DNA of 42,050 bases from a virus (lineage: Duplodnaviria > Heunggongvirae > Uroviricota > Caudoviricetes), in IMG/VR virus record IMGVR_UViG_2718218402_000004, positions 1 through 42,050 of that record; one strand, written 5' to 3'. The position numbers are program-made. Positions 6,001 through 9,000 of this stretch are shown here, in pieces (the first letter of the stretch is position 1; every line of letters starts with the position of its first letter).

Positions 6001-9000
6001 GATGATAATTACGGCTCACCTGCTGGCTGCCGAACTGCTCCGAGTCCACCTGCACGCCGACCAGTGCCGTGTTCGGGTAGCACTGTTTCACATCGATAAT
6101 TTCGGTGTATGACGACCAGAGCGTTTTGTTCTGCAGCTGGTCTGTGGTGCTGTCCGGCGTCATCCTGCGCATCCGGATACTGAACGGGCGCGGCGGCAGG
6201 TTATCCACCACCACCGAGGCCAGATACTGTGAAGTGGTTTTACCCTTAATGGTGATGTCTTTTTCCGTCACCCAGGCCCCGTTACGCTGTATCTGAACCA
6301 GCAGGCGAACCTGCGATGGATTCCTGTCCCCCTTTGAGGTGGTTTCCACCAGTGCCTGCACGCCGAAGTAAAACGCAGACGGTCAATGTTTGCCGACGTG
6401 ATGGTCCGGGTGATCGGCGTGTCATATTTCACTTCTGTACCGAGCACCGTCTCGGAGCCGGAGGATTCAAATCCCTCCGGCGGTGTCTGCTCCTGCTCAC
6501 CGGCCCGGAACACCACCGTGACGCCGGATATATTGGTATTCCCCTCACTGTCCAGCACCGGCGTACTGTTCAGCAGCACACTTTTTAATCCATCCACCGG
6601 ACCTTCAACCGGCCCTTCGCTGATGGCATCGATCACACTCAGTAACTGCGTGGATTTCAGGTTGTCCTTCGCTTCGCGCGGGGTATGCCCCTTACTGCTG
6701 CCTTTGCCCATTCGTCATGCTCCATAAACGACAAAACCGCCCGGAGGCGGTTTCACATAAAACATTTTGCATCAGCGGCCAATCACCACAACCTGACCAC
6801 CGTCCCCTTCGTCTGCCGTGCTTATCTCCTGAGAAACCACACGTGACCCCACGCGCATTTCACCGTACAGAACGGGCAGAACATTACCCTGGGCAACCAT
6901 GTTATCCAGGGAGGAGAAATAGGTGTTCTGTTTACCGTTATCCGTGGTGCTGGCTTTTGCTACACTGGCTTTCGGTGCCAGCATCTGTGCAACACCACCA
7001 AGTGTCATCGCCGCGCCCATTGAAAAGAGAATGTCACTGAAAGCGATACTAATTCCTGGCATCCAGATTGCCGTCGCAATCAGCGCCGCCCCCAGCACCA
7101 CCTGAAACACACCGCCACTTTTAGCTCCCGCCATACGCGGCACGATGTGGATCACTGCACCATTCGCCAGTGGCTCATTAAGACGGGCTGATAATTCGGT
7201 TTCACCTGTATCCTGCCCGGCAATACGTACCTGATACCAGCCCTCGTTCAGTTTCTGACGAAACGCCGGAAGCTGGGTGGCAAGCGCCCGGATGGCTTCG
7301 CCCCCTGTTTTTACACGCAGGTCGATGCGGCGACCAAATCGTTGTAAATCCCCGTAAAGGCAGATGCGTGCCATGCCCGGTGACGCCAGAGGGAGTGTGT
7401 GCGTCGTTGCCATTTGTCGGTGTACCTCTCTCGTTTGCTCAGTTGTTCAGGAATATGGTGCAACAGCTCGCCGTCGCCGCAGTAAATGGCGGCATGATTC
7501 GGCACCGATGCACCAAAACAGCACAGCAGCACAATCGCCCGGTTGTGCCTCTGTCAGTGCGACACGGTAAAACCCCGTCGCCTCCATATTGTCAAGATAG
7601 AGATTCTGACCGTGACGCCACCAGTCATCCCCGCGATGAAAATCCGGTAGTTCGATTCCCGCCAGATGGTAGGCATCCCGGAACAGCGCGTAACAGTCCG
7701 TCACCCCGTGCTCAAAGTGTCGCCCGTTGAGATGCGGCACGCAGCGGAATTTATGAATCTCACCCCGGCAGACCAGCCACCACGGCAAATCACTCTGCAC
7801 CTGCAGCCGCCGGTCGGCCTCACTCAGCCAGGGCAGACCACCGGGGTGGCTGTGGACCAGCGCCACAATCTCACCCTGCATCTCAGCCTGCAGCCAGTCT
7901 TCCAGCGACATACGGAAATACGCCTCCGGCTCACCGGAGATATTCACGCAGGGGAAATATCTTTCCCCCTCCGGCGTGCTTACCACGAAGCCGCACGACT
8001 CCGCTGGCGCACATCGCCGGGCGTGCGCCAGAATCGCTGATTCTGTCTCTGTCATGGGATTTACTGCGAAAGTTTGTTAATGGAAAGGAAGCCGCCAAAG
8101 TTGCCGACGTTATTGCGAAACTTACAGCCACTCAGGCATTTGCTGCATTTATCCTTCGTGATATCGGACGTCGGCTGGTCATATTCATCCGCGACCGCCG
8201 GACCGTGATAACCGCACTCATCACCGCGATAGGTCCAGGTGCAGGTGTTGGCCAGCATGATACGTCCCGGAAAAACAGCGCCATCCGTTTCCGTCGGCGT
8301 GGACAGTACAAAGGAGGCACTCACCGCGCTCAGTTCGCTGCACTGCTCGATGCGCCAGCGGCTGATCACCTCCTGCTCCGGATCGGAGTCGCTGTTTCCG
8401 TTGACGAAGTTCACCGCATCCAGAAAACGGGCGTAAACCTTACGCCGGACCACCGTTCCGCCGACCAGACTCTGCAGATCTTCCGCCATCCCGGTGACCA
8501 TACCGTACAGGTTAGAAACCGTCAGCGTGGGGCGCGTACTGGTGCCTTTGCCATTCAGTTCGAAACCACTCCCCTGAATGGGATACGGCTGATACTGTCG
8601 CCCCTGCCAGGTGACCGGCTCACCTTTTTCGTTCTGCTCATTGCAGAAAAAATAACGTTCTCCACCGACCTCTGTCAGGTCGATTTCCCAGAGCACCACG
8701 CTGGCCGACTGCTCCGCACGGGTGCATTCATTCAGTGTTTCCTGCCGGATATCCTGCATCAGTTCACCACCTGTTTAAACTCTGCGCTGAACTCAACACG
8801 CAGCATACTGACCTGCGACGACCATTTTGCGCAGGTCACCTTTATCTGCCTGTAACCATAAGGCGGCGTCCACAGAAAGGCCTTCCAGCCCCCGTGCTCA
8901 GCCAGAAACGACTCCAGCGCCGTGGCCTCCTCACGGGAGACAGACAGCGTCACGCTGTACGTTTTCAGGTCAACGTTCAGCCCGGCAGGCGCACGCTGGG

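Follow-up and report, generated by a model that had tools for sequence, protein, structure and literature searches.

Gene K of phage lambda is needed for tail assembly, as is known from classical lambda genetics. Its product, gpK, is a non-virion assembly factor that went undetected in lambda virions (PMC10721106) and has a peptidase domain (PMC7291167). A role in processing the ubiquitin-like domain of gpI has been suggested for it, and single-domain K variants have been noted in prophages by Iyer et al. (PMC1779556). Lambdoid prophages of pathogenic E. coli commonly contain frameshift defects (PMC2669165). Here, we analyze a K gene with one additional base in a stretch of 42,050 nucleotides comprising positions 1 to 42,050 of IMG/VR virus record IMGVR_UViG_2718218402_000004 (Caudoviricetes), which is referred to as the window in the following. 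It contains two late-gene modules that resemble those of lambda and run in opposite directions, module 1 on the minus strand from position 1 to about 15911 and module 2 on the plus strand from about 15909. In both of them K resides between L and I in an H-M-L-K-I-J tail-tip block, just as in annotated relatives and in lambda. K belongs to PHROG 30.

A single additional T in K of module 1

The sequence GGGCGATTGTGCTG is found once in the window, on the minus strand at 7527-7540 in K of module 1, and GGGCGATGTGCTG is also found once, on the plus strand at 30259-30271 in K of module 2. The original prediction, which had been made from the sequence by reading alone and had proposed an alignment of both K copies, was that module 1 K is altered by a single extra T. 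This is confirmed by the two motif searches and by a 1.4-kb alignment of the K-I regions of both modules, which differ by the extra T alone; over 6386-8561 as a whole it is again the sole difference between module 1 and module 2. The range originally given, 7535-7560, overlaps the motif, but it starts 1-2 nt past the extra base itself (Table 1).

The duplication of one base, T to TT, after codon 174 shifts the reading frame of K and leads to a stop 28 codons later. The altered C-terminus and the end of K 45 codons ahead of that in module 2 had both been foreseen and were found as such (Table 1). The same holds true for the disappearance from module 1 of the 103-nt K/I overlap, which is present in module 2 (30385-30487) and in lambda (K, 14276-14875; I, 14773-15444): in module 1, the K stop codon at 7447-7449 and the ATG of I at 7411-7413 leave a gap of 33 nt. 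The orphaned 3' part of module 1 K is identical to residues 175-247 of module 2 K and matches positions 469-541 of PHROG 30. Module 1 K thus differs from intact homologs by a single indel behind which the coding sequence is kept in the old frame, as is characteristic of a frameshift pseudogene.

Table 1. Positions of the features discussed in the text. Coordinates refer to the 42,050-nt window.
Feature	Position	Strand	Description
Extra base	7533..7534	-	TT on the coding strand (AA on the plus strand), one T extra; after codon 174 (GAT, Asp) of K; private among six aligned alleles
Module 1 K as now read	7447..8055	-	202 aa, made up of 174 native and 28 out-of-frame residues
Orphaned 3' part of module 1 K	7311..7532	-	73 codons plus stop, open in the original frame; holds His187 and His199
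Module 2 K	29744..30487	+	Intact, 247 aa; JAB and complete NlpC/P60 domains
Module 1 I	6772..7413	-	213 aa, intact, identical to the module 2 copy; Lambda_tail_I, 84.7 bits
Module 2 I	30385..31026	+	Overlaps module 2 K by 103 nt
Head-to-head join	15909..15911		Module 1 cut 161 nt into the major capsid gene; module 2 cut 123 nt into Nu1
Putative gene-conversion tract	5400..8561		3,162 nt, from the 3' part of L through K and I into the 5' part of J; differs from module 2 29238-32399 only by the extra T and a short patch in J
J patch	6339..6385	-	Four synonymous changes plus the private loss of one nucleotide at 6368/6369, by which J is divided into 6268-6711 and 3299-6361

The extra T is private to module 1. 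It is missing from the other five alleles of a six-allele alignment and from each of the 8,536 K copies detected across 4,194 complete E. coli genomes, in which the best match was 36 of 37 positions. This count was obtained with a conserved 37-nt core as the query in sensitive mode; an 81-nt query matched just 29 E. coli genomes, the flanks of this K allele being rare and the T splitting a 28-nt seed. The local K sequence, be it with or without the T, had no match in GTDB representative genomes, IMG/VR or JGI metagenomes, and exact look-ups of the 202-aa and 247-aa K proteins did not yield a match either. As judged from sequence comparison, it is module 1 K that carries the derived state.

Domains retained and lost in module 1 K

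A Prok-JAB domain is present at residues 4-105 of both K copies (Pfam PF14464; 51.5 bits in module 1 and 50.7 bits in module 2, cutoff 25). The JAMM motif, for which the pattern E...H-S-H-x7-S-x2-D was taken from PMC300881, is intact in module 1 K (E19, H68-S-H70-x7-S78-x2-D81) and was also read in module 2 K. The two proteins differ in the second domain, NlpC/P60 (Pfam PF00877, cutoff 23 bits). Module 2 K passes the cutoff with 50.6 bits over residues 111-224, covering profile positions 1-105 of 105, whereas module 1 K falls under it with 17.2 bits over residues 111-174 only, corresponding to profile positions 1-55 of 105. When aligned to solved NlpC/P60 enzymes, the frameshift is located directly after the conserved QPGD motif. 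H187 (in NHAAIY) and H199 (in LLHH) align with conserved His positions of these enzymes and are both situated downstream of the shift, while Cys121 lies upstream of it and is kept in module 1 K. Cys121, His187 and His199 are taken to be the catalytic triad of the NlpC/P60 family. What remains in the truncated product is the JAB metalloprotease domain together with that half of the NlpC/P60 (C40) peptidase domain which contains Cys121, and with both His residues lost the papain-like domain could not be completed. The earlier statement that the NlpC/P60-like segment is lost therefore holds for the C-terminal half with the two His residues, but not for the half containing Cys121.

K homologs occur in 1,761 phage records, and in 1,722 of these at least 80% of K is covered; homologs of about 30% identity in such records extend to residue ~226. 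The two-domain JAB plus NlpC/P60 architecture is preserved in cultured/viable phages. One phage record appeared as at least 99% identical to K on the protein level, while the nucleotide search gave at most 92%; this record is probably a short partial match. We infer that module 1 K, as it now reads, is almost certainly a non-functional, dead copy of a lambda-type tail-tip assembly gene.

Module architecture

There is no homology between the two modules at the join at 15909-15911, and none of the complete E. coli genomes searched spans it. A 407-aa open reading frame on the minus strand at 15044-16267 is a chimera across the join. Within the window, module 1 lacks genes for terminase, portal, protease and decoration proteins, the 5' end of the capsid gene as well as the lysis and early region, and in module 2 both cos and all sequence upstream of it are absent; cos, lysis and early genes are thus missing from both. 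Apart from K and J of module 1, every gene in the two modules is open. What is left of module 1 is the truncated and stranded remnant of a prophage, predicted to be unable to make particles. Since K is required for tail assembly, a frameshift in this gene would be tolerated only in a non-productive prophage or if it were complemented. The element harboring the lesion is otherwise non-functional (capsid truncation, missing upstream genes, frameshift in J), which entails relaxed selection, and the status of module 1 as a stranded remnant would explain why the K lesion is tolerated. In view of this status and of the frameshifted J, the lesion would be without consequence for phage production. An intact and otherwise identical K is available in module 2, 22 kb from module 1 K.

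The two modules together form a large imperfect inverted repeat (2215-14267 and 23560-35566) of mosaic identity, which amounts to 76-80% in Z-U-V-G, 89% in H, 95-100% across M to J and 95-97% in lom/stf. The two 89% identical H arms enclose a segment of roughly 14 kb, which could be inverted by recombination between them. Type III secretion effectors form part of the cargo of the window: there is an intact nleH gene (1-882, minus strand; NCBIfam equivalog, 545.7 bits), and a 282-aa open reading frame on the plus strand at 39121-39969 takes the position that cif occupies in a related prophage of strain SC434. Both genes point to an EPEC-like E. coli host. A poly-C run in cif as the cause of the frameshift of this gene in strain SC434 was considered and dropped because the run is identical in both.

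Related prophages and the shared tract

Module 1 is 99.0% identical to a prophage of E. coli 19KM2326N (NZ_CP151038.1) that is inserted beside yodB, a homology that ends at window position 15911, and it also resembles the nleH-carrying prophages of EPEC E2348/69. Module 2 resembles cif/espJ prophages inserted near torT. The join was also considered as an inversion relative to 19KM2326N; the 99% terminase match, however, belongs to a Qin-like prophage at ydfJ and not to a cif phage, and no inference is drawn from it. K is intact in the related prophages of strains Z1322HEC0010 and E2348/69. In 19KM2326N, K (19289-20030 of the locus examined) is annotated as frameshifted and has two other 1-nt deletions at the equivalents of window positions 7500 and 7654, that is, within 155 nt of the T insertion described here. 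Further frameshift annotations in the same prophage concern nleH, stf, FI and the gene for the large terminase, and all these frameshifts may reflect either assembly noise or parallel decay. The C7 run of nleH at 454 in the window is a C6 run in 19KM2326N, the nleH of which is the one annotated as frameshifted.

In a six-way alignment, module 1 and 19KM2326N exhibit 43 differences over H to J, 42 of which reside within 5456-8490. Outside of these borders, in H, M and the 3' part of J, a single base distinguishes the two. The simplest reading is that this part of module 1 has apparently been overwritten recently from module 2 by gene conversion. The resulting 3,162-nt tract holds both frameshifts of the 42-kb window and not a single isolated substitution. 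The second frameshift is the one in the J patch, the size of which is bounded to 47-266 nt. The changes in the patch correspond to the common E. coli J allele, which was found with 101/102 identity in 923 complete E. coli genomes. The 1-nt deletion itself had no 100% match in complete E. coli genomes, the best being 99.0%, and it falls precisely on a position at which the module 2 allele (ACCTTC) and the common one (ACTTTC) disagree.

Origin of the additional base

We infer, with a probability of about 0.5, that the T is present in the DNA and represents a real, very young frameshift in the dead K copy of a stranded remnant. It would have arisen in the tract overwritten from module 2; as this tract is recent and has gained no isolated substitution since, the T, if real, would be very young. 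Single-base duplications are common among spontaneous insertions, selection on module 1 is relaxed, and sister prophages carry lesions of their own, in K in the case of 19KM2326N and in J in the case of Z1322HEC0010. The window is otherwise clean, with 34 homopolymers of at least six nucleotides (ten of them of at least seven) and no other broken gene. On the other hand, spontaneous substitutions in E. coli exceed indels roughly ten to one, and a tract with nothing but indels would thus be unusual for plain neutral decay. This imbalance would be accounted for if the additional T in K and the missing nucleotide in J were real footprints of recombination-associated frameshift mutagenesis, i.e., of Pol IV-type error-prone synthesis during gene conversion, as such synthesis would produce single-base indels without isolated substitutions. 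We consider this origin of the two lesions unlikely.

A serious competitor of the young mutation, which we place somewhat short of even odds, is that the T does not exist in the DNA and stems from an error of the consensus or of polishing that was left uncorrected in a long-read or hybrid assembly with multi-mapping short reads, in which case module 1 K would be intact and equal to module 2 K. The two explanations fit the observations about equally well. The T is a singleton seen in no other sequence searched, including the 8,536 E. coli K copies, and the frame of K downstream of it is wholly undecayed, both of which speak for an error and against a real mutation. Furthermore, both frameshifts fall into the only long tract of the window that is otherwise 100% identical to a second copy, a situation in which short-read polishing fails, and this tract of 3,162 nt contains indels only. 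The deletion in J at an allele-differing site within a patch of at most 266 nt resembles what would result from an admixture of reads from a third J copy, and inverted repeats whose arms reach 2.7 kb, with a span of about 13 kb per module, would presumably need long reads for their assembly. Several points do not sit well with an error, however: T to TT beside a G is not a typical homopolymer context for long reads, the real homopolymers of the window (C7, C8, A7 and T8) are all in frame, including the C7 run in the intact nleH, and the module 2 copy of the tract is error-free. Module 1 is moreover defective independently of K, such that a real lesion would come as no surprise.

It has also to be considered that the shift might be bypassed or even used, be it by programmed +1 ribosomal frameshifting, by transcriptional slippage or by a functional split into a JAB-only K1 and a C-terminal fragment starting from a GTG at 7532. 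The old frame is indeed open and begins with this GTG right at the insertion, the JAMM motif of module 1 K is intact, and prophages with single-domain K variants are on record (PMC1779556). Yet, there is neither a slippery heptamer nor a homopolymer nor an in-frame stop at the site (CGA TTG TGC), TT being the longest run in GGGCGATTGTGCTG, and programmed shifts are conserved, whereas this one occurs in no other of the six alleles and in none of the E. coli K copies counted. We have therefore rejected programmed recoding. For a split gene, no Shine-Dalgarno sequence is discernible by eye upstream of the GTG, a papain-like fold split at its middle is unlikely to reassemble, and module 1 is in any case cut off from the late promoter region. 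Taken as a whole, we hold a bypass or use of the shift to be highly improbable.

Implications and comparison with known systems

The feature is of a known kind, a frameshift pseudogene, or else an artefact, and such a state is usual for the lambdoid prophages of pathogenic E. coli. If the young mutation is real, module 1 K is a further example of a private frameshift pseudogene, residing in the degraded lambdoid prophage of an EPEC-like E. coli and having an intact paralog nearby. On the level of annotation, K at 7447-8055 and J at 3299-6711 are to be marked as frameshifted pseudogenes. If the T is an error, the case illustrates that near-identical prophage repeats are places where consensus errors survive polishing. 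Should the two indels go back to error-prone break repair, they would provide a natural case of mutagenesis inactivating prophage genes between inverted prophage copies. The wider context, two effector-carrying late-gene modules that are arranged head-to-head and exchange a 3-kb tract, is mildly more interesting than the frameshift as such.

The closest characterized counterpart is lambda gpK (tail tip assembly protein K, annotated as 'C40 family peptidase'), the gene of which has the same L-K-I operon position as the genes described here. Module 2 K shares with it the Prok-JAB plus NlpC/P60 architecture and the 103-nt overlap with I, whereas module 1 K lacks residues 175-247 and ends 33 nt before I. 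A tail-gene frameshift that likewise removes the C-terminal part of the product is known from stf of laboratory lambda (PMC10721106); the difference is that stf is dispensable for plaque formation. As regards a possible artefact, residual indel errors in repeats of hybrid assemblies, i.e., long-read assemblies polished with short reads, likewise appear as isolated single-base indels within a 100% identical duplicate with clean unique flanks, but the context of the K site is not a long homopolymer. Finally, the 'defective prophage pool' of O157 Sakai and the effector prophages of the EPEC E2348/69 type likewise consist of several near-identical lambdoid prophages with type III secretion effectors, here nleH and a cif-like gene, and feature tail-gene frameshifts, large truncations and inter-prophage recombination tracts as found here (PMC2669165). 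The locus described here differs from these prophages in that two late-gene modules are joined head-to-head in a non-homologous manner and in that the lesion in K resides in a tract that has recently been homogenised with the copy next to it.
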